Source: a virus. From it: DNA of 64,000 nucleotides. The notes beneath the pieces are model-generated. The model was given only the letters and a program-made list of their open reading frames with translations. It was not told where the DNA came from and made no database searches. Position numbers and translations under genes: made by a program. The stretch spans positions 2,464 through 66,463 of the IMG/VR virus record IMGVR_UViG_3300045125_000170, one strand, 5' to 3'. Positions 1 through 36,447 of this stretch are shown piece by piece (position 1 is the stretch's first letter; each line of letters begins with the position of its first letter).

Positions 1-180
1 AATCGTAGCCAGAGAAATCAAAGTTGTTGATATCTGGTGTACTCAATGTCCGGAGTGGACATCATTGAGAGACTACGATGTTTCCGTTTTAAGTTTAATC
101 CAAGAATGGAGAACTTGGGGGCGGGATAAAGTTTTCTCTACCCTCTAACTAATTGTGACAGCACTACTCTAAATGTGCTG

Positions 181-650
181 TCACTCCACCAGCATCCGAT
201 TCAACTTCTCAATATCGGACAATGCTAACAACTGCCCAGCATACTTGGGCATTTTATCAAATAACAACTCCAACTGCTTGTTGGACAATCTCCCAGTCTC
301 TGTATATTGAAGCGAGAGACTAGACAGTATTCCAGCATCAAATGCGGTAAATCCGATGCCATTATGCTCGGATGTTTCTTCATTTATGCGCTCTGCTTGT
401 GTTTGTCCGCTATAGACAACTACAAGCGCTCTCAACGCCCACGCGCTGTTGGTTGAGAGTTTTTGTTTTAGGAATGCGATCGCTCGTTTTTTAGATACAG
501 CTAATTTTACATTTTTAGCTGTTAATTTTCTCTATTTCCGACTCGATATCTATCAAGTCAAGAATATAGCGTTTTAGCCCCATTCTCACCAGGGCTAATA
601 GAGTATTTCTCCGTCCAGCTAACTTCTGAAGTTGTGTTCGCTTCATACAT
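181..650 (-). CDS. Conserved phage hypothetical protein (frameshifted 5' part)
   Basis: ORF 181-435 (RALVVVYSGQT...HNGIGFTAFDAGILSSL) extends upstream through indels to an ATG at 650. Confidence 0.45.
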
Positions 651-754
651 ACCCCAAAGTTCCGATATCTCAATATTAATAAACTACTTTCTTAAAGTCA
701 ATAACTTTAGAAATATTTATTTATTTGAGTATGTTAAAGCGGTGAGGCGATCGC
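476..754. repeat. Two HIP1 octamers GCGATCGC (476-483, 747-754)
   Basis: Exact matches read from the sequence; HIP1 is a known cyanobacterial repeat. Confidence 0.6.
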
Positions 755-832
755 ATTTTTAAGTGCTAAAATAAAGATACCCCTAGTCACAGGAACTAGA
801 GGCATCAACTCAATCAACTTTCATAACTAATT

Positions 833-1555
833 ATGGCACAAATTTTTCAATTTGAAGGACACGAAATCAGATTCATTGATGGCAAACCAGTAGCTAATGA
901 CGTTGCTGCTGTGTTGGGATATGCGGATCCAGCTAAAACAATCTCTACTAAAGTTAAAAGCAAAAACAAAGGGGTAGCTAAAATGGCTAACACCCGGAGG
1001 ACTGCAACAAGTAACAGTTCTAGAGGAGGCAGGCATATACCAGCTTATATTTAGCAGTAAGCTACCCAGTGCAGAGAAATTCCAGGACTGGGTATTCGAG
1101 AAAGTACTACCAGAGATAAGAAAAACTGGCAGCTTTAATTCAAAACCAGATTTTAAACAAATCTATGCAGATAGATTGTTAAACAATAAAGTGATTACGC
1201 CAGAGAAGCATTGGGCAGTATTTGGAGAAAGTCATTTATTACTGCTGTATGTTGAGCAGACTTTACGCCATCCAGTAGATAAATTTGACTTATTAGACGG
1301 CTCTGTTGGCATACGATGGGCAAACTATCGTAAAGACAAAGAATGGGCGCTAGAAAGCAGCACAGGCACCATCATCTTCAATGACAAACGCAACACTCAA
1401 ATCATAAGGTGTTACCAATATCCAGAACTCACTATTTTCGTTGGTTCTTAGAAGATGTTTATATTCCACTCTTCTTAGAGCAATACCTTGAAGATAATGC
1501 TAAGCGCAAAAACAAGCTCTTGAATTCAAGTGAACAACAAAATCTACTAAGCTAA
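833..1555 (+). CDS. BRO-N (antirepressor-like) DNA-binding protein, frameshifted
   Basis: Fragments join to FQFEGHEIRF..VANDVAAVLGY..EAGIYQLIFSSKLPSAEKFQDWVFEKVLPEIRKTGSF, the Bro-N signature; ORFs 833-1054 and 1176-1451 are parts of it. Confidence 0.85.
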
Positions 1556-1562
1556 CATCCAT

Positions 1563-1585
1563 AGTCTCTCCTCAGAGACTTTTTA
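1563..1585 (+). terminator. Intrinsic terminator after the BRO gene
   Basis: AGTCTCT-cctc-AGAGACT followed by a T run. Confidence 0.7.
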
Positions 1586-1602
1586 AATAAATCTACCAGC
1601 AC

Positions 1603-1795
1603 TACTTGACAAGCTTCAGCGCGGGATAATTTAACTACTCAAGACGGTTGGTTCTTAAAAATTCTTTTTCTTGATTCCAGCAAAAAGAAATTTCTTTCTT
1701 TGATTTATATTCTTTTTTTCTTCTGTCATCTAGTGGATCAGGGAGATTGATTTTTTGCATCTCGCGAGATTGATTTTTTGAATCTCGCGAAATTA
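1603..1795 (-). repeat. Degenerate inverted copy A of the central segment of the replication initiator gene
   Basis: 1723-1756 matches the reverse complement of 23317-23350 at 33/34 nt; weaker similarity extends to about 23490; internal 23-bp tandem GAGATTGATTTTTTG(C/A)ATCTCGC. Confidence 0.8.
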
Positions 1796-1890
1796 ACACT
1801 TTTATCTCTACACCGCTTACATCTTCTTTCTTTCTTAAAGTTAATGCTTATATATTCTTAGCTTTATAAACTGATTACTATAAGGTGGAT

Positions 1891-2075
1891 ATTTGACAAG
1901 TCTCAGCGCGGGGTAATTTAAATTGATAACAAGAAATCTTTCTGTTTGCTAAACAATCAAGATTTTTAACCAAAGAAGAAATTTCTCATTTGCTGTTTAT
2001 ATATTCTATTTCTTCTTTTGTCATCTATGGATCGGGGAGATTGACTTTTTGCATCTCGCGAACGAAAGAAATTAA
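1891..2075 (-). repeat. Degenerate inverted copy B of the same initiator-gene segment
   Basis: 1970-2067 aligns by eye to the reverse complement of about 23299-23400 (CCAAAGAAGAAATTTCT...TCGCGAACGAAAG). Confidence 0.8.
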
Positions 2076-2102
2076 TTTACTCCACCTGCTAAATGACGTT
2101 GA

Positions 2103-2406
2103 TTTCATCTCACTATCGCCTAGAACATTGATTATTGCGTTGAATCAATGTCATTTTTTAGCTCTGTTTTCATCTCACTCACTAAATGGCGTTCATTTCA
2201 TCTCACTATTGCCTAAAACATTGATTATTGCGTTGGATTCATGCTTATTTTTGGCGTTGGTTTCATCTCACTCGCTGGACAAGCATTAATTCCAGCTCTA
2301 TTCTGATTATTTTGTTGAATCAATGCCCATTTCATCTCACTATTGCCTAAAACATTGATTATTGCGTTGGATTGATGCTGTTTTTTGGCTCTGTTTTCAT
2401 CTCACT
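2103..2406. repeat. Three 77-bp units (2103-2179, 2196-2272, 2330-2406), each bounded by TTTCATCTCACT
   Basis: 12-mer starts at 2103, 2168, 2196, 2261, 2330 and 2395; shared core GCCTA(G/A)AACATTGATTATTGCGTTG. Confidence 0.9.
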
Positions 2407-2436
2407 AAAAAAGCGCCATCTCTGACGCTTGTTTTT
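2407..2436 (-). terminator. Intrinsic terminator for minus-strand early genes
   Basis: Minus strand reads AAGCGTCAGAGATGGCGCTT then a T run. Confidence 0.55.
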
Positions 2437-2825
2437 TATATCCTCCACTCCCTACACCATCTGTGCCATTCTGGAGTACTTATTTTTATTTGATGAGGGA
2501 GGATGTCTCTTATTTGTACCTTTGTCTGGCGTAAGTTCTTTTTGTGCGAACCTTGATGTTGCAAGGCAAGTGCTTGCTTTTTGCCTTGAGGAGGTGGATG
2601 GGAAGTGGTGGTAGAGGGAGTAATCCTCCTCATCATCAAGGATTTGGAACTCTACTTCCCAACAGTCTACCCACTGCTGGGATATTCTATATTTCTGATC
2701 TTCATGCCACTGTTGTGGACGCCCACTGCTGGCATATTTGCCCTCCTGTTCCTTATGTCCTCAATCTTGACACCAGGCATGCCATCTCTGGGGAATCTAC
2801 TGTCAAGTGGTTTAGAGTAGTTTAA

Positions 2826-3298
2826 TTATTTTGCTAAATCAGTATTTCTTAGATTTGTACCAGTTAGATTAGTATCAGTTAAATCAGCTCGAGTTAAGCT
2901 AGCAAACTCCCAGTTGGCTTTACTCAAATCAGCTCCAGTTAAATCAGCACCTGTTAGATTAACATCGCTCTAAATAAGCTCTCACTTAAATTAGCACCTG
3001 TTAATTTTGCACCTGTTAAATTAGTACTTTCTAAATTTGCATCTGACAAGTTTGCTCCTGTTAAGTCAGCTCCTTTCAAATTAGTCATTGTTAAATTTGC
3101 ACCTGACAAGTTTGCTCCTGAGAGGTTAGCGTTTATTAACCTAGCCCAATTTAAGTCTGCACCTGACAGATTGGCACCTGACAGATTAGCTCCATTTAGC
3201 TTAATTCTTGATAAATTAGCATTTGCAAATATAAAATTTGCTAAGTTTTCATTCTCAAAACAAAAACCACTTAGATTAATTCCAGTGTAATCTTTCAT
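2826..3298 (-). CDS. Pentapeptide repeat protein B (frameshifted)
   Basis: A(N/D)LSG repeats; ORF 2954-3298 continues after an indel to a stop at 2826. Confidence 0.85.
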
Positions 3299-3310
3299 TT
3301 GTACTCCTAA

Positions 3311-3345
3311 TAAAAAACCACCCTTCCAGTCCTGAGAAGGGTGCG
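3311..3345 (-). terminator. Terminator between the two pentapeptide genes
   Basis: Minus strand CACCCTTC-tcaggactg-GAAGGGTG followed by GTTTTTT. Confidence 0.65.
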
Positions 3346-3358
3346 ATCTTTTTGTTTG

Positions 3359-4115
3359 TTATCCTCTTCTCAAATATTCCAATACTGCATTCTCAGTGTT
3401 AGCAGTCATCTAAATTAGCACCCTCGCGCATAGGCGCAGGTCAAATTTGCACCGTGACAAATTAGCGTCCCGTCAAATATAGCGCCTTCAGGGTCCAGCG
3501 CACATTCTAAATTAGCACCTACTTAAGTTGGCATCAGTTAAATCGGCAACATGACAAATCAGCTCCTGCTAAATCAGCTCCTTTTAAATCAGCTCCTGCT
3601 AAATTGGCAATACGTCAAATTGCTAACATGTTAAGTTAGCATCAACTAATATTAACTCCTGCCAAGTTGCATTTTCCCAGATGCCTTGCCAATTAGCACC
3701 TGACAGGTTAGCTCCTGCTAAATCAACGTTATATAATCCAGCGCCTGACAAATTGGCATCTGTCAAATCAGCGTCAGTTAGATAGGCATTTGTCAAATCA
3801 GTACCTGACAAGTTTGCATTTGTCGATCTTTTAGGTTTGCACCAAACAAATGAGCGCCTGTCAAGTCAGCGCCTGTCAAATCAGCATTAGTTAAATTAGC
3901 CCCATGTTAAATCAGCGCTATTTAATTTTGCGCCTGTTAAGTCAGCTCCTGATAAATAAGCAGCTGTTAAATCAGCATTCATTAAATCAGCAAACATAAT
4001 TTAACATTTTCCAAATTTGAGCCTGAAGATCAGCGCCTATCAAATCTGTATTTGTAAAATTGCGATCTGTTAAATCGCAATTCTTTAAATCAGCTCCACT
4101 TAAATTTTGAATCAT
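3359..4115 (-). CDS. Pentapeptide repeat protein A (heavily frameshifted)
   Basis: Starts MIQNLSGADLKNCDLTDRNF; ADLTG/ANL repeats seen in alternating frames, including ORF 3623-3811. Confidence 0.75.
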
Positions 4116-4820
4116 TTTAATTAGTCTCCTACTATCTGTTTCTATAATGCAAACTTACTCTCTAATTATTGTCACGTGATTCTGATTTAGAGAGTAGTTT
4201 TAATTATTTTGTTGATCACTTCTCAAAGGTTTTGAATGGCAGATTGCGTTTGTTGCCTGTCAGCGACATACTCGTTGTATGCTCGGGTCGATCTCTCGAT
4301 TTGTTGGTACAAGCCTGTCCAATCTGCTGCACTACCACAACTTGATCGGATTCCTAGCCGAACCGATTTGTGCCGGTTAGGACAGTTTGACCATGCGTCT
4401 GTCATCCATATTCTCAATTACTGTCCCTTACTTCGGGATTCCAAAAGTAGGAAATTATGTAGTCATCCCCTCACCCAGAATCTCTCCTTGTCTGGGCTTC
4501 CTCTTTTTAATCTTGATGAACCATTCGGGTGCAGCAATTATCCGCTGCTTTTTTGCATTCTTGTTCTCTCAGCTCTTGGCATACTTCTCGCTGATCATCC
4601 TTCGATGCTCAATTGGAGCAACAGTCGCCCCATGTCATTTCTTCACGTTGTAGAAAATTCGTATATCCATTTTTGAATATTTATCTAAGAATTTCTTCCT
4701 CACTCCCATATGTGGGCAAGGTCAGCACCTGCCCAGATAGCGGGCTCCATCTGCGTGCTGCCATTCACAACGAATATGATGTCACAATTATAGACATGCT
4801 AGCAGTTGTTTCTCGCGCCA

Positions 4821-5171
4821 TCACCCTCCACTAAAGTCGGGCATTACTACCTCTTTGGTTTTGCCTGTTGGCAGCAACAGGGCTGTCCCCAATACTTCCT
4901 GGGGAGGAAAATACCAAGGAGGAAATAAATTTGCCTCCAAAGTTCCAAAACTGTATGATTGGGCTTTATGCCCTGGACAGGCATATTTGCTCCAGTCTGC
5001 TAGCGAAGCAAAGTTTCTCTTTACCTCGTCCAGTAATGGATCTCCACTGCTGGTTTCATCTTCCCAGCTAATCATTTCAACTAGCCTATCTGAGTCGCTG
5101 TCTATATCTCCATAGACAGCTAACTCTACCTCTTCCCAGGCAATATTGTCTGGATTTTGGGATATCGTCAA
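4821..5171 (-). CDS. Hypothetical acidic protein
   Basis: 116-aa ORF in a run of minus-strand genes below the promoter at 5429-5457. Confidence 0.55.
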   Translation of the reverse strand: MTISQNPDNIAWEEVELAVYGDIDSDSDRLVEMISWEDETSSGDPLLDEVKRNFASLADWSKYACPGHKAQSYSFGTLEANLFPPWYFPPQEVLGTALLLPTGKTKEVVMPDFSGG

Positions 5172-5428
5172 TATTCCCTTTCTTTAACTTCCCGCCTAAA
5201 TGGGATGCTAATTCTTTCTGCACGTCGATGTGCAGTTCGGATACGTTAACTTTGTATGATGATACCTTCATTGTTGTTGCTTCCTCCAATTGTTTCCATC
5301 TTAATAATCTCATCCATCCAGCGACGGATGTTATTGTTGCCACTCTACTCCTGGTGATCAAGTTGATTAATACTTCTGTCGTTCTCATCTTATCCCAGGG
5401 TAAAAGTAGTTCCCTGCCTCCTTTCATT

Positions 5429-5457
5429 AATATAAACTACTTTTATTTCACTGTCAA
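5429..5457 (-). promoter_or_regulatory. Sigma70-type promoter
   Basis: TTGACA-17-TATATT followed by AAAGGAGG. Confidence 0.7.
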
Positions 5458-5481
5458 GTGGTTTCTTACAATTAATCCCTG

Positions 5482-5817
5482 TCATCCCAATATGATGACA
5501 TTGACTCTGGCTTCTTCTCTTTGATTGGATGGAAACTCGCTTAAATCGGGTTCAAGCTGCTCCCTCCACCTTTTAAGCTCCTCTTGATTTGCCATCTCCA
5601 AGTTTGTTCTTAATATCTCTTTGAGAGATATGTCTGGACATAACAACCATTGGATGGTGGTGTCCATCTTTACTATTCCTATATCAGGTTCTGGGGACAA
5701 GATTACTCTTAATGGTATCTTGTAAGCAATCGCATCACCCACAAAATCTCTTGTGGGAAATCTGTATAGCTGATAAAGTGCCTCTAAGATTATATGCCCT
5801 CTCCGGGCATATCTCAT
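5482..5817 (-). CDS. Hypothetical protein
   Basis: 111-aa ORF. Confidence 0.5.
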   Translation of the reverse strand: MRYARRGHIILEALYQLYRFPTRDFVGDAIAYKIPLRVILSPEPDIGIVKMDTTIQWLLCPDISLKEILRTNLEMANQEELKRWREQLEPDLSEFPSNQREEARVNVIILG

Positions 5818-6244
5818 CTTCTAAGCGTTCGATTCGCTGTTCCTCTTCCTGAAATCATCTATCTTATACTCCAATGATGGAACGTAAGTTTTTTCTGTTT
5901 GTTCAAAACTCAATTTTCCATTGATGTAAGTCATTCTTACTGCCCATTGATTAATATTCAATGCTCTAATGAATTGTCTCAAACGGCGTATTGCCATAAG
6001 ACAAAATAGATAAGTCTCTTATAACTTCTTGAGTTTGTTTGTATGTTAACTTCATCATGTTGCCTCCAATATTTTCTCATTTTTATAATATAAATCATTA
6101 TTTAAATATTATCAATACATTTATTAATTATTGGTGTAATCTCTTTAATTAAAATAGCAAAGCTTTTACAGCTTTGCTCTAATAACTATGTTTTCTTAGA
6201 CTCAGTAAATGCAGCTAGAGATATTAAAACGTTAGTTAAAAAGA

Positions 6245-10620: not shown

Positions 10621-11153
10621 GTGAGTGAGAAAATTATTTAGATTCGGTGGTGTGTTCATTAGCAATAGTTGCTAACAAAGATTAAACCCCACTTTTGCTA
10701 TGCTTGCAACAAGATCTTCATCAAGATTGATTTTCAAGCGTATTCTAAGTGGAACTTAGGACTTCGCAAAAGCAGGGCTATCTATATTATAGCAGTAACA
10801 TTACCCAACTCTTCCAACAAAGAATTAGGTAATGTTTGATTTAAGCTGATTTCCACAATCTCCGGACATCTGCATCTGTCCATGTTCTATGCCCCACCGG
10901 AGCTGGCTTTAATTGATTAGCTTTTGTCCAGGAGGACTTGCTAGCTAAGAACTTTCATGGATGGATCTTCAATTGGATCTGCTTCCAATTGAAATGTGCC
11001 ATCTTTTAGCTAGAAAAACCAACAATCTTGTACACAGATTGTTTTTGAGTTTCTATTGTTATTGGATTGCTTGCTCAATCAAAGATTGTTGTTGCTTCTT
11101 TTTTCTCAGCTGCTTGTATGACAACGTATTCATACATTTTGGGAGAATACAAC

Positions 11154-22772: not shown

Positions 22773-23983
22773 ATGAATTATTCTTCATATCCAACTCGGA
22801 CAATTATTTATTCGCCAGAATTATCCAGAGAGTTCGGGGCAGTCACCGCTTCAATACTTTACCAGCAATTAAATTACTGGTTTTCTAAGAAGAAACAGTT
22901 CTTCAAGTATTTAGCTCCTCCAGCTGAACCAGACATTGACAAAACGCCACACTACAAAACTGGCGATAGCTGGACAGAGGAATTAGGCTTTAGCATACAT
23001 GAGTTTAGAAGTGCTTTTGATAAGATGGGTATTCGTTATAATTCTTTAGCTAAATATAAGAAAGCTAAAGATAACAATACTGTCTTTAACAAAGATGGTA
23101 AACAATATTTATTTGCATCATTTATAGATAAGCGTAATAACTTAACTTATTACGTTAAGAACTGGGACTACGATAAAGAGTTCCAGCAAAGAGTGTTTGG
23201 AATTGATGTGGATAAGTTGCCATCTGATGAAGTTATTGAAGATACCAAGCGTAAAAGCGCTGGGAACGCTAAAACAACACTTTCGCGAGGTAAAAACACT
23301 TTCGTTCGCGATGTTGAAAAAATCAATCTCCCAGATCCACTAGATGACAGAGAAGAAAAGAATAAATATAAAGAGCAGAATGAAGAAATTTCTTCTTTGG
23401 ACAAAATTCCAGAAATCAAGAAAGAAACGGAAAATCCCTCCGTTGGGGAAATTAAACAAGCGCCGCCCGCCCCCGCGTCTTGTCAAGGCGCTAAGAGTGG
23501 ATTGAGTAATGTGCTGCATCGTCCGAAGCATACATTTAAAGGAACAGCAATTAGCGTGTCATCGGATGCATGGATGGTTGGGCAAAATCCTAATCGTGAT
23601 TTTGTAAACTGGCTTCTTCAAGAAAAAATAAAGGAAAATCCTAACAGTGATTACAATAAGTTGCCTAATATTGTGGCTGAGATTAAAAATGACTGTTATA
23701 GAGCAGATGGATATTGGGTTGCTTATCAAAACTTTTTGCAGGGCAAAAATTAGCTGAGGAAAGAGCTGAGCGAATTAAAGCAGCTAAGATTCAAGAAGAA
23801 AGAGAAGCAGAAATTTTAAAGGCACAAGCTGAATGGGAGTTAGTTCAAGAAGCTGAAATGTGCGGAATGTCTTTGGACGAGTACAGAGATTATAAGTCCC
23901 AAAAACAGATAGAAGAAACAGAAAATACGTTAAAGCAGTTGCATCAAAGACTTAAAGAGAATGCCAAAAAATCTTTACTTTAA
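22773..23983 (+). CDS. Phage replication initiator (lambda O / replisome-organizer type); probable frameshift joins 23714-23983
   Basis: ASILYQQLNYWF..FFKYL..GDSWTEELGFS..EFRSAFDK; low-complexity centre; lies upstream of dnaB. Confidence 0.7.
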
Positions 23984-24050
23984 GAGAGTTATTGACATTT
24001 ACTAGTTTTTCTTTTAATATGTTTTTGTACCGTGTTTACCAATAGCCATC

Positions 24051-25350
24051 ATGGAAATTGAAAATAGCTTTAATTTAGAAGCAGAAAAAATCTGCTTATC
24101 CCACTTGATGACGTGTGGGGAATTTGAATTATTAGACTTGAAAGAAGATGACTTCTTTCTAGAAACACATCGAATTGTGTTCCAAGTCATTTTTGCTTTG
24201 TATGACATGGGACGTGAATATAAGTTTATTGACGTTATTGATTTTTTAGAAAACCATAAGGCTAATAAGTTAAAAGAGCCAAAAAAATTATTGCTGAGTT
24301 AATGGATACGGCATATTTTGAGACTGAAAGCAGTTTGCAGATTATCAAAGACAGATCTGTAAGACGCAAATTAGCGTCTGCTTCTGCTCAAATAGAGCGT
24401 GCTACAGCTAATCTGACTTTGACTCCAGAGGAAATATTAGGTAATGCACAAGATGCGTTATTTAATATAGAGAAAAATGTAGTAGGGGAACGCTACAAAA
24501 TTTCCTCTGCTCAAGAATTAGCAGTATCGTTTTTTGAGGCGATTACTGCACCTAAACAAAAGCTGCCTAACTTAGGGTGGTACGCATTGGATAACATTTT
24601 GAATGGTATTCGTCCTTGCTTATATTTAGTGGCTGGTGGCACAGGCATGGGCAAAACATCATTTATGATGGCAATGGCTAAGCAGTTGATGACGAATCAC
24701 AATTTACCAGTCATTTATTTTACTCCAGAGATGACTGCTCATCAATTAACTTTACGGATGATTGGCAGTCTTTCTGGTATTAATTATGCTGAAATTGAGA
24801 AGATTGGACTTAAATCAACAAGATTCTCGATGGAGTGTATTAAGTACTGCTATTAATGATTATAGCAACTTTACCTTTTTATATCAACGATAATGCTACA
24901 CCTACTATGGGCATTATTGAGTCTGATATTCGTAAAGTATTAGCAAAGACACCTGATAATAAAGCTGTTATTTTTATTGACTATTTACAACAATTACCAC
25001 CAGTTGGGAGGGATGGTGATTCAGCTTCTGAGTTGGGAAGACGCATGCAAATGCTAGATAATATTGCCAAAAAGTTTCAACTTCCTATGTTTGTTGGTTG
25101 TCAGATTAACAGGGCTAATGCCCAAACTAATGAAAAGCGTCCAGATCTTAATTCTATTCGTGGTAGTGGAGAGATTTGCGAGAAATCAGCTGTAGTCCTG
25201 GGACTGCATCGTCCAGGTTATTATACAAGGGATTATACAGATAATTCTTTTGAGGTAATAGTACTAAAAAACAGGTGGGGACGGATGGATGAAACAGCTT
25301 ATTTCAGATGTGATTTAGGTATATCAAAATTTGAGGATACATCTGTATGA
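24051..25350 (+). CDS. dnaB: Replicative DNA helicase (three frameshifted fragments)
   Basis: EAEK..L..FFLETHRIVF; AGGTGMGKT; FTPEM; IFIDYLQ; QINR; RGSGEICEKS; KNRWG. Confidence 0.95.
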
Positions 25351-34917: not shown

Positions 34918-36447
34918 TAAAATAATCCTCCACCGACTCCATCATATAAATAAGCAATAGATGCTGGGTATGATTGATAAACGCACTAAATAGCATGGCT
35001 GATAATTGTTGTTGCAGTTGTTGTTGTAACATTATTTGTATATGCATCAGCATCTGTGTTTGTAAAAGCTTCTGCTGTTGCTGAAGAACTGGGAAATTCG
35101 TAATTAAAAACAACTGTACTGGTTCCAGCAGCAACTCCATCGCTTACGTTACCTTTTTCTACTACAATATTACTATTGTTAATTTTATCAACAACAATAG
35201 TTGGGGTACCGCTTATTGGTAATGATACAGAATTTACTCTAACTGTGTCTCCTATATTTATGTTAGTAAAAGCATTTGTAGCGTTCAGATTAAAATAAGT
35301 TACTCCAGTCATATCTGATGGCACATAAGTAGAAGTAATATTAGTTATATCGCAATTACTAACTGAAGTTTGTTTTTTAATTGGTAATATAGTGAAACTC
35401 ATTGTCATAATATTGTTTATCCGTGCTGTTTGTCCATTTATACTGGGATTTGTTTCATTAATAGTTATACTAGTAGCATTACGCAGTGCTACTGCACTTG
35501 CAACAGTGACATTTGTAATAACGTTTGAAACAGAAATAAAAGCTAGCTGAGTACCTCTTGGAATTCTACTTGTTACTCCAGTAACTGTTAATGTGGTTCC
35601 AGATACTGCTGTGCAACTAATTGTAAAATTAGAGCGAGTATAAGATGGGACTACCAATGATTCTTAATTGTCTATTTGAGCTACCTGCTGTCAATCTATT
35701 TTGTTTCGTGTTCCTATTTTGACAGTTTAAATAAAACCACTCCATTAGCTGGAAAATATGTTTGAAAATTACTAAAATCAGCAGGAGAAACATTTGTGAT
35801 TGTAATTGTTACAGTGTCTATCATCTGTTATTTCTAACTCTTGATTTGGGTGTGCGCCTCCAACTGATAATTGCGAATATCCAGTATAATTAGCATTACC
35901 TCCATTAAAAATATATCCAAAGCTCCTTGCAATAGCATTATGAAAGTTGTAAGTCAAGTCCTTGAAATGAGGAACCATAGTAATCTTATACGCTGATTCT
36001 TGTGCTATTGCTAATTCAAAATATTCTGGAACTAAATGATTTTCTCCTGGTGGATAATAATACCACAATCTATGAGTCTGAGATGTTCTGTGATGGATTA
36101 AACAATTCACGCATACCAGAAAAGTTATACCTGTATTAGCCTAATCCAGTATGTTTGTTAAAAAAACTTTTTCGTAATTTTGGCAACGCGCTCAACTTTG
36201 GCGCTCGCAAAGGTAGTCTTCCCACATGTCCTAACTCTTCTAAGTTATGGCTTGTGTGAATTCCTTTTATTGTTGAATCTATTTCACAAGAAGTATCAAT
36301 TACCAATGTTTTTAAATTTTGTAAAGGCAATGGTAATCGCCCAATTGATGGAGCGTAAACTGAACGAACACCTGCTATTTCTGAAGATCTTATTTGTAAT
36401 TCTTGTAAATTAACTAATCCTTGCCTAATATTATTACATATCAACAC
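34918..36447 (-). CDS. Fibre-like protein with an LRR-like N-terminal part and a Thr/Ser-rich beta-strand part (frameshifted)
   Basis: ORFs 36136-36447, 35778-36110 and 34986-35657. Confidence 0.5.

Follow-up and report, generated by a model that had tools for sequence, protein, structure and literature searches.

The analysis of a 64,000-nucleotide (nt) stretch of the IMG/VR virus record IMGVR_UViG_3300045125_000170 (positions 2,464 to 66,463; hereafter the window) outlined a non-coding locus that carries two inverted copies, A and B, of the central segment of a probable replication initiator/organizer gene located about 21 kb away. The source of this DNA is a decaying cyanophage-like prophage, and the complete record, of 67.5 kb, is classed as a provirus in IMG/VR. 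By analogy with the paired replication origins of phage SPP1, the locus may represent a distal, non-coding, origin-derived cis element that is bound by the initiator and comparable to SPP1 oriR, a tentative reading to which we assign a rough probability of 0.4. A neutral relic is nearly as likely, and the copies could be inert debris. The components of the locus and the segment from which the copies derive are as follows.

1563-1580, plus strand: terminator-like hairpin followed by a T-run, closing the upstream gene and forming the left border (terminator scan)
1603-1795, minus strand: copy A, non-coding, reverse complement of gene segment 23281-23490 (blastn, alignment)
1743-1794, no strand assigned: 23-bp tandem repeat, 2.3 copies, inside copy A (Tandem Repeats Finder, TRF, period 23)
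1796-1890, no strand assigned: spacer of 95 nt between copies A and B
1891-2075, minus strand: copy B, the second non-coding copy, closer to the gene (84%) and with one box (blastn, alignment)
2089-2408, plus strand: three 93-nt units with six exact TTTCATCTCACT 12-mers (repeat scan, TRF)
2411-2430, minus strand: terminator-like hairpin flanked by an A-run and a T-run, apparently bidirectional, forming the right border (scan and sequence reading)
23281-23490, plus strand: source segment, encoding a predicted disordered linker (about residues 170-240; alignment, model)

Two inverted copies of the centre of a probable organizer gene

A blastn search with positions 1500-2500 as the query and the window as the target returned two minus-strand matches to the organizer gene, one for copy B (1961-2068 versus 23409-23299, 84.1% identity over 113 nt, E 1e-23) and another for copy A (1682-1792 versus 23397-23281, 77.5% over 120 nt, E 3e-18). 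A three-way alignment traced the homology from CTTGACAAG (about 23487 in the gene) down to about 23285. These results substantiate the central claim of the original prediction, made from the sequence without database searches, that the locus contains two inverted copies of the centre of the initiator gene. The nearly identical stretch (33/34) reported in that prediction also holds for copy A and the gene, where it corresponds to CTGTCATCTAGTGGATC-N-GGGAGATTGATTTTTT. Self-comparison of the whole record by blast identified the copies as its sole dispersed repeat, all others being tandem arrays of local extent or paralogues among the tail and fibre genes.

The gene segment encompasses two TCGCGA boxes 23 nt apart, about 105 nt of purine-rich and AT-rich sequence and, finally, a GC-rich block. 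Two TCGCGA boxes are present in copy A and one in copy B, and the stretch adjoining the boxes presents a GC content of 0.32 in the gene and 0.25-0.28 in the copies, versus 0.35 genome-wide. When the copies are compared with each other, their 5' blocks are 88% identical and so are their box blocks, with a 34-nt core of the box block reaching 94%. The AT-rich middle is 61% identical and contains many gaps, yet its GC content stays at 0.25-0.28. The 23-bp tandem that had been pointed out in copy A was recovered by TRF with the same period. It duplicates the TCGCGAGAT..AAAAAATCAATC box and generates a 10-bp inverted repeat, TCGCGAGATT-N9-AATCTCGCGA, for which DNA folding yields a z of -3.7, with 0 of 200 shuffles folding as well.

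No credible open reading frame (ORF) was detected in a scan of 1556-2435, and the hairpins at 1563-1580 (plus strand) and 2430-2411 (minus strand) bear out the earlier description of the locus as non-coding and terminator-bounded; four terminator-like sites were found, compared with 1.1 expected from shuffles. Mismatches to the gene fall on the three codon positions in proportions of 5/3/3 and 2/4/2, and indels break the reading frame. The copies show no coding constraint.

Derivation from a pseudogene of a second initiator gene was considered and rejected, as the homology stops at about 23285 and about 23490 and the mismatches are evenly spread over codon positions. An intact second initiator ORF, the alternative named in the original prediction, was looked for in the sister clade, represented by genomes G004 and G005 (90% and 100% complete according to CheckV; contig L003 is the same contig as G005). 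None was found at the equivalent place, and no record with a second initiator match was detected. The locus is hence not a simple pseudogene, because there is no second initiator gene at this place in the sister clade. Inversion of the 21-kb interval through recombination between the copies was judged unlikely at 77-84% identity over about 115 nt.

Conservation of the copied segment at the DNA level

Outside the locus, the features bearing on the copied segment and on the genes discussed below are as follows.

22773-23983, plus strand: probable replication initiator/organizer gene, split by a 1-nt deletion near 23738
23207-23215, minus strand: perfect DnaA-box-like sequence TTATCCACA, about 70 nt from the source segment and one of three in the window
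23454-23488, plus strand: GC-rich 35-nt block AAACAAGCGCCGCCCGCCCCCGCGTCTTGTCAAGG, kept at the DNA level in the sister clade
24051-25350, plus strand: DnaB-type helicase gene with DnaB and DnaB_C domains, directly downstream of the organizer gene
833-1555, plus strand: upstream neighbour of the locus, an Ant/Bro-N-type gene, weakly BstA-like and broken by two frameshifts (three-frame reading)

The region spanning 23038-23517 is 95-100% identical in DNA among three close alleles, versus 82-92% in its flanks, and in the sister clade the DNA of the linker is as conserved as that of the structured N-terminal domain. The GC-rich block encodes the peptide PPAPASCQG via GC-rich codons and is almost pure GC in a genome of 35% GC. 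It is kept in five IMG/VR contigs of a clade in which the protein is about 38% identical (in L003, at 10723-10757). The linker should be under low protein constraint, yet its DNA is conserved, which suggests a nucleotide-level function in this part of the gene, by analogy with lambda O and SPP1 gene 38. A hairpin in the GC-rich block was tried and discarded, its fold (z 0.1-1.1) being no better than shuffles.

A probable replication organizer as the source gene

In this record the organizer gene is read as two ORFs, 22773-23753 (326 amino acids) and 23714-23983; the L007 and L008 alleles, which are 92-94% identical, and the sister clade read through the frameshift near 23738. The adjoining DnaB-type helicase gene is likewise broken into three ORFs, versus a single gene of 434 amino acids in the sister clade, where the organizer-DnaB order is kept. 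The frameshifts in the initiator, DnaB and Ant/Bro-N genes, for which relatives are intact, would reflect either a decaying provirus or assembly errors.

ORF 22773-23753 matched no Pfam or PHROG model. Its family comprises 1270 cluster representatives (50% clustering) at E up to 0.001, for which the common part is restricted to the N-terminal 130 residues. Some family members carry DnaA_N or DnaB_2 (DnaD-like) domains, and homologues were identified on plasmids, such as four Paracaedimonas plasmids, as well as in phages and multi-copy elements of Lachnospiraceae. Cultured phages gave no match in either DNA or protein, and the IMG/VR protein scan returned none.

An AlphaFold model of the protein presents a confident N-terminal domain (residues 8-145, predicted local distance difference test, pLDDT, above 90), a disordered region (157-271, with a linker pLDDT below 50) and a helical C-terminal domain. 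With VIA-align, the N-terminal domain matched winged-helix proteins, among them a plasmid RepA, the winged helices of ORC and the Geobacillus primosomal DnaB, at Z scores of 5-6.6 that reach the range of a common fold only, and structural neighbours in the Atlas carry DnaB_2, DnaA_N, DnaT or Phg_2220_C domains. A Foldseek search of the whole model against the PDB returned no match. The synteny with DnaB, the domain partners of its relatives, the homologues on plasmids and the winged-helix N-terminal domain support accepting the product as a probable replication initiator/organizer, and the identity put forward for this gene in the original prediction is credible on the same grounds.

As a separate observation, the N-terminal domain (P0001 residues 1-145) defines a large family without a Pfam or PHROG model and is likely an origin-binding winged helix. 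Distal copies as a general habit of this family were considered and dismissed, since the other loci repeat only flanking promoter-like sequences or tandem paralogues. Comparison with L008, a close relative that is 92% identical in the initiator, also revealed that an unalignable stretch of 1.6 kb (L008 2753-4325 versus window 23760-25346) replaces the C-terminal end of the initiator and the DnaB region. Judging by these sequences, the replication module is exchanged in mosaic fashion.

Comparison with known replication origins

In SPP1, the origin oriL lies inside gene 38, the gp38 organizer gene located upstream of those for a loader and a DnaB-type helicase, and a second origin, oriR, is found about 13 kb away in non-coding DNA bracketed by transcription signals. 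Both origins combine direct repeats with an AT-rich DNA unwinding element (DUE), both are bound by gp38, and gp38 at oriR has been proposed to stall the replication fork and to trigger the switch to concatemeric replication (PMC6316719). As a positive control, SPP1 gene 38 was searched against the SPP1 genome with blastn, and its sole distal match linked 35950-36018 to 4878-4948 (71 nt, 83%), the latter within the non-coding region of oriR.

The system described here resembles SPP1 in that an organizer gene lies 5' of a DnaB-type helicase gene and a central segment of it recurs at a distal, non-coding and transcriptionally insulated site. The blastn matches are also comparable in size, with 71 nt at 83% in SPP1 versus 113 nt at 84% and 120 nt at 77.5% here. 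Unlike in SPP1, the copies are inverted, form a tandem pair 21 kb away from the gene and adjoin a 12-mer array, and their boxes are fewer and of another sequence. Alignment of a 60-sequence family profile of the organizer with gp38 gave an hhalign probability of 0.2, with no detectable homology. The two proteins are not homologous, and the likeness to SPP1 is therefore one of functional analogy and not of family membership. The proposal that the copies are satellite origins or initiator-binding sites thus acquires a precedent in oriL/oriR, which blastn reproduces, and is reasonable as an interpretation by analogy.

The origin of phage lambda sits in the linker-coding middle of gene O, with its repeats adjoining an AT-rich, strand-asymmetric stretch. 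One lambda study names these iterons, ITN1-4, and the AT-rich sequence beside them (PMC3349717). Lambda presents four clear iterons of 18-19 bp and no known distal copy, whereas the gene segment analyzed here contains two TCGCGA boxes spaced by 23 nt.

Distant cis sites with initiator-binding repeats cooperate with the origin in P4 (ori1 and crr) and in R6K (alpha, beta and gamma), the P4 crr consisting of two direct repeats of about 120 bp. Replication depends on those sites, which contain several identical iterons, and P4 crr, like the lambda origin and P1 incA, is a looser analogy for the copies than SPP1. In P1, extra initiator-binding sites outside the origin, at incA, restrain copy number through handcuffing. 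The incA locus is composed of nine iterons by repA in a plasmid prophage, in contrast to the one or two boxes per copy, the apparent absence of ParA from the window and the provirus class of the present record. For the likeness to incA suggested in the original prediction, the two copies together offer three boxes and no array of many identical iterons, and the accompanying link to a phage-plasmid finds no support in a record that is classed as a provirus and in which no ORF of the window matches the ParA stretch of the sister clade. In that clade, a ParA gene is located divergently upstream of the initiator (L003 8569-9474). By sequence, a plasmid-like lifestyle is possible in the sister clade only.

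The 12-mer array and the borders of the locus

To the original prediction, which described the copies well, must be added the three 93-nt units that occupy 2089-2408. These units are 80-88% alike, and their 12-mers, all within 2103-2406, are arranged in pairs 65 nt apart. In each unit there is also an AT-rich hairpin of 8 bp (CATTGATT..AATCAATG) with a T-run after it, at 2128-2160, 2221-2253 and 2355-2387. In the hairpins of units 2 and 3, sequence changes preserve pairing via G-U on the plus strand only, an observation that with n=3 is not significant. The spacer between copies A and B (1796-1890) has no clear homology to the units.

No population difference among those listed falls inside a 12-mer, and from its sequence the array looks like a protein-binding array with a specificity that differs between clades. 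The six 12-mers and the TCGCGA boxes have 9/12 positions in common, within chance expectation. A single motif class uniting them was rejected, because the motif TTNNATCTCNC was designed post hoc and chance alone would give it about 50 matches of 9/12 in the window. In IMG/VR, neither the 93-nt unit nor the paired 12-mers nor the box motif turned up in any other record, and a metagenome scan for the 12-mer pair returned 17 stretches, none of them related by blastn.

Both copies retain a TTGACA-N15-TAATTT pair at their 5' ends, 88% alike. A promoter scan, which used a spacer range of 16-18 nt, called no plus-strand promoter in 1590-2270. Rfam searches of positions 1-6000 yielded nothing near threshold, and RNA folds of the whole locus on either strand were not better than shuffles (z -1.3 and -1.9).

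The locus is flanked by convergent features, with the plus-strand Ant/Bro-N-type gene on its left and a short minus-strand ORF (2436-2639) on its right. The former matches Pfam Bro-N (E 8e-11), PHROG Ant families (E 2e-21) and the BstA family phrog_6287 (E 5e-6), and an exact-protein look-up for a gene of the left flank found no record. The C-terminal end of the latter matches a phage gene of 130 amino acids from the sister clade. No integrase or protelomerase was found among the ORFs scanned, in a scan that was not exhaustive.

The equivalent junction in related genomes

The window is syntenic with G005 from position 2439 onward. At the equivalent junction, G004 and G005 present a gap of 265 nt with two exact 23-mers (CAAAAAGTGCTTTACAGCTAATC) 64 nt apart (L089 1565-1651), beyond which G004 carries pentapeptide-repeat and unknown genes. 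The junction is structurally unstable in relatives, as the G005 contig ends there and G004 carries other genes. The metagenome-assembled genome that contains the two initiator alleles closest to that of the window, L007 and L008, presented no contig matching the locus or its flanks. The copies are 84% identical to the L007 allele and 81% to L008, and no better-matching foreign allele was found.

Genome G005, of 86 kb, is classed as having inverted terminal repeats, its outermost 130 nt being identical and the next 880 nt or so 87% alike (terminal regions compared: L084 1-900, the end of L088 and L089 1-1800). Its left end maps to about 2280-2440 of the window, at the right edge of the locus, and the G004 contig is 1.5 kb longer, reaching into the pentapeptide-repeat genes. 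Given that G004 extends past the end of G005, the apparent ends of the latter may correspond to an assembly break at an inverted repeat rather than to physical termini.

The locus in natural populations

Contigs from four public runs of freshwater metagenomes, belonging to three studies and including both DNA and RNA libraries, were compared with the locus; no conclusion was drawn from the parts of it without cover in single runs. Independent contigs span its junctions at 939-1700, 1809-1980, 2028-2239 and 2382-2722. Since contigs from other runs bridge these junctions, the locus is not a misassembly, a possibility that the original prediction had raised and that the independent samples carrying it dispel.

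Two haplotypes were seen, the two-unit arrangement of the window and a one-unit form (joint 1796>2102, with 11 other letters) that appears in a DNA run of 2016 and in an RNA-library run of 2025, and each keeps at least one copy adjoining the 12-mer array. A third run contains a joint that goes back 295. Depth over 1601-1800 is 3-6 times that of the flanks in two metagenomes, a region to which contigs of copy B and of the gene also map. Two metatranscriptome libraries provided contigs over 1434-1750, 2194-2406 and 2382-2722, with no strand information, and one RNA-library contig runs from the upstream gene across the terminator.

Discussion

Under the reading that we favour, the phage origin would lie within the linker-coding centre of the organizer gene, and an inverted copy of about 200 nt of it, comprising the boxes and the AT-rich stretch, would have been placed beside the 12-mer array in a terminator-bounded gap 21 kb off. 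The winged-helix N-terminal domain of the organizer would bind TCGCGA-type boxes at both the gene and the distal site. The latter might then provide another origin. It might also, once bound, block the forks and bring about the change from theta to concatemeric replication that has been proposed for SPP1 oriR, or else restrain initiation by serving as a sink or a partner for handcuffing. This interpretation is supported by a homology that is far beyond chance and constitutes the sole dispersed repeat of the record, by its source in the linker DNA of a probable organizer, conserved like in-gene origins, and by the identical blastn signature obtained in the SPP1 control. It is also supported by the preservation of the 5' and box blocks (88%) relative to a middle that drifts (61%) but stays AT-rich, by the doubling of the box in copy A and by the retention of a copy in both haplotypes seen.

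Several observations weigh against an oriR-like element. Both copies have lost most of the GC-rich block, which is better conserved than any other part of the gene segment, and this shared deletion entails that they descend from one capture. Their 16-23% divergence from the gene and frequent indels fit neutral decay, and with one or two boxes per copy there is no clear iteron array. Genomes G004 and G005 have neither a second copy of the initiator segment nor initiator-like sequence elsewhere, which makes the feature specific to this lineage and dispensable for the family, and 34 other family loci revealed no distal linker copies. The haplotype joints imply that copy number is polymorphic in nature, and in the population the locus is just as divergent (2-5%) as its flanks. 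Furthermore, the initiator, the helicase and the neighbouring gene are all frameshifted in the record, so the element cannot work with an intact module here. A neutral relic, to which we grant almost the same weight, would have arisen when illegitimate recombination placed a piece of about 200 nt, from the prophage's own initiator gene or from that of a relative, the other way round at a repeat-rich non-coding junction, where it would now be decaying after duplication by unequal crossing-over or by recombination between diverged haplotypes. The absence of coding constraint, with its even mismatches and frame-breaking indels, the sister clade without the feature, the variable copy number evidenced by the 1796>2102 and 295-nt joints, a population divergence no lower than in the flanks, the frameshifts in at least three genes of a decaying provirus and the instability of the junction in relatives are all consistent with such a scar. 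It accounts less well for this being the sole such fragment in 67.5 kb, for its derivation from the one place known to hold the origins of organizer-type initiators and for a blastn signature equal to that of the proven functional SPP1 pair. The 88% identity of the 5' and box blocks versus 61% in the AT-rich middle, the amplification of the box in copy A and the retention of a copy in both haplotypes likewise argue against it.

A further possibility, which we regard as unlikely, is that the fragments constitute a trans-acting weapon or brake, in the form of decoy sites or antisense templates, that would act from an insulated cassette of variable copy number to silence replication, either in superinfecting relatives or in the prophage itself. 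In its antisense form, already advanced in the original prediction and quite unlikely on present evidence, plus-strand transcripts of A and B would lower the translation or stability of the initiator mRNA, from the resident gene or from that of superinfecting relatives. In its favour, such an RNA would be complementary to about 110 nt of the mRNA (77-84%), and close relatives hardly vary in the targeted stretch. Moreover, G-U pairing is preserved on the plus strand only in the hairpins of the 93-nt units, with a T-run after each, and contigs from two metatranscriptome libraries cover parts of the locus. The proposal depends, however, on the TTGACA-TAATTT pair at the 5' ends of both copies, whose 15-nt spacer falls outside the 16-18 nt of a scan that called no plus-strand promoter in 1590-2270. 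There is also no Rfam match, the folds (z -1.3 and -1.9) do not stand out from shuffles, and the RNA-library contigs, one of which crosses the terminator from the upstream gene, prove neither strand nor transcription. The decoy form, in which initiator-binding fragments would titrate or misdirect the organizer of incoming related phages for their exclusion, is very unlikely. It has a parallel in lambda, where, according to the study cited above, a part of ori-lambda (ITN3-4) together with oop on plasmids in cells blocks theta replication of infecting rep-lambda phages (PMC3349717). The location next to an Ant/BstA-like accessory gene, the differences between the copies and the resident gene, by which they could match other alleles, and the elevated depth over 1601-1800, to which copy B and gene contigs also contribute, would be compatible with a decoy. 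Against it, two or three boxes on a single-copy prophage make a weak sink, and the foreign alleles found match no better than 84% (L007) and 81% (L008).

As a relic, the locus would be an ordinary finding, a scar left by recombination where a decaying prophage has an unstable non-coding junction. Functional copies would provide a testable prediction of origins at two places, the linker of the organizer gene and the distal site. Should the oriR-like reading be true, that prediction would cover an uncultured lineage of freshwater cyanophages and a large family of winged-helix organizers without a Pfam or PHROG model. The SPP1-type pairing of an in-gene and a distal origin would then have arisen independently with an unrelated organizer protein, which would suggest that phages have a general means of regulating the replication switch or how frequently replication takes place.

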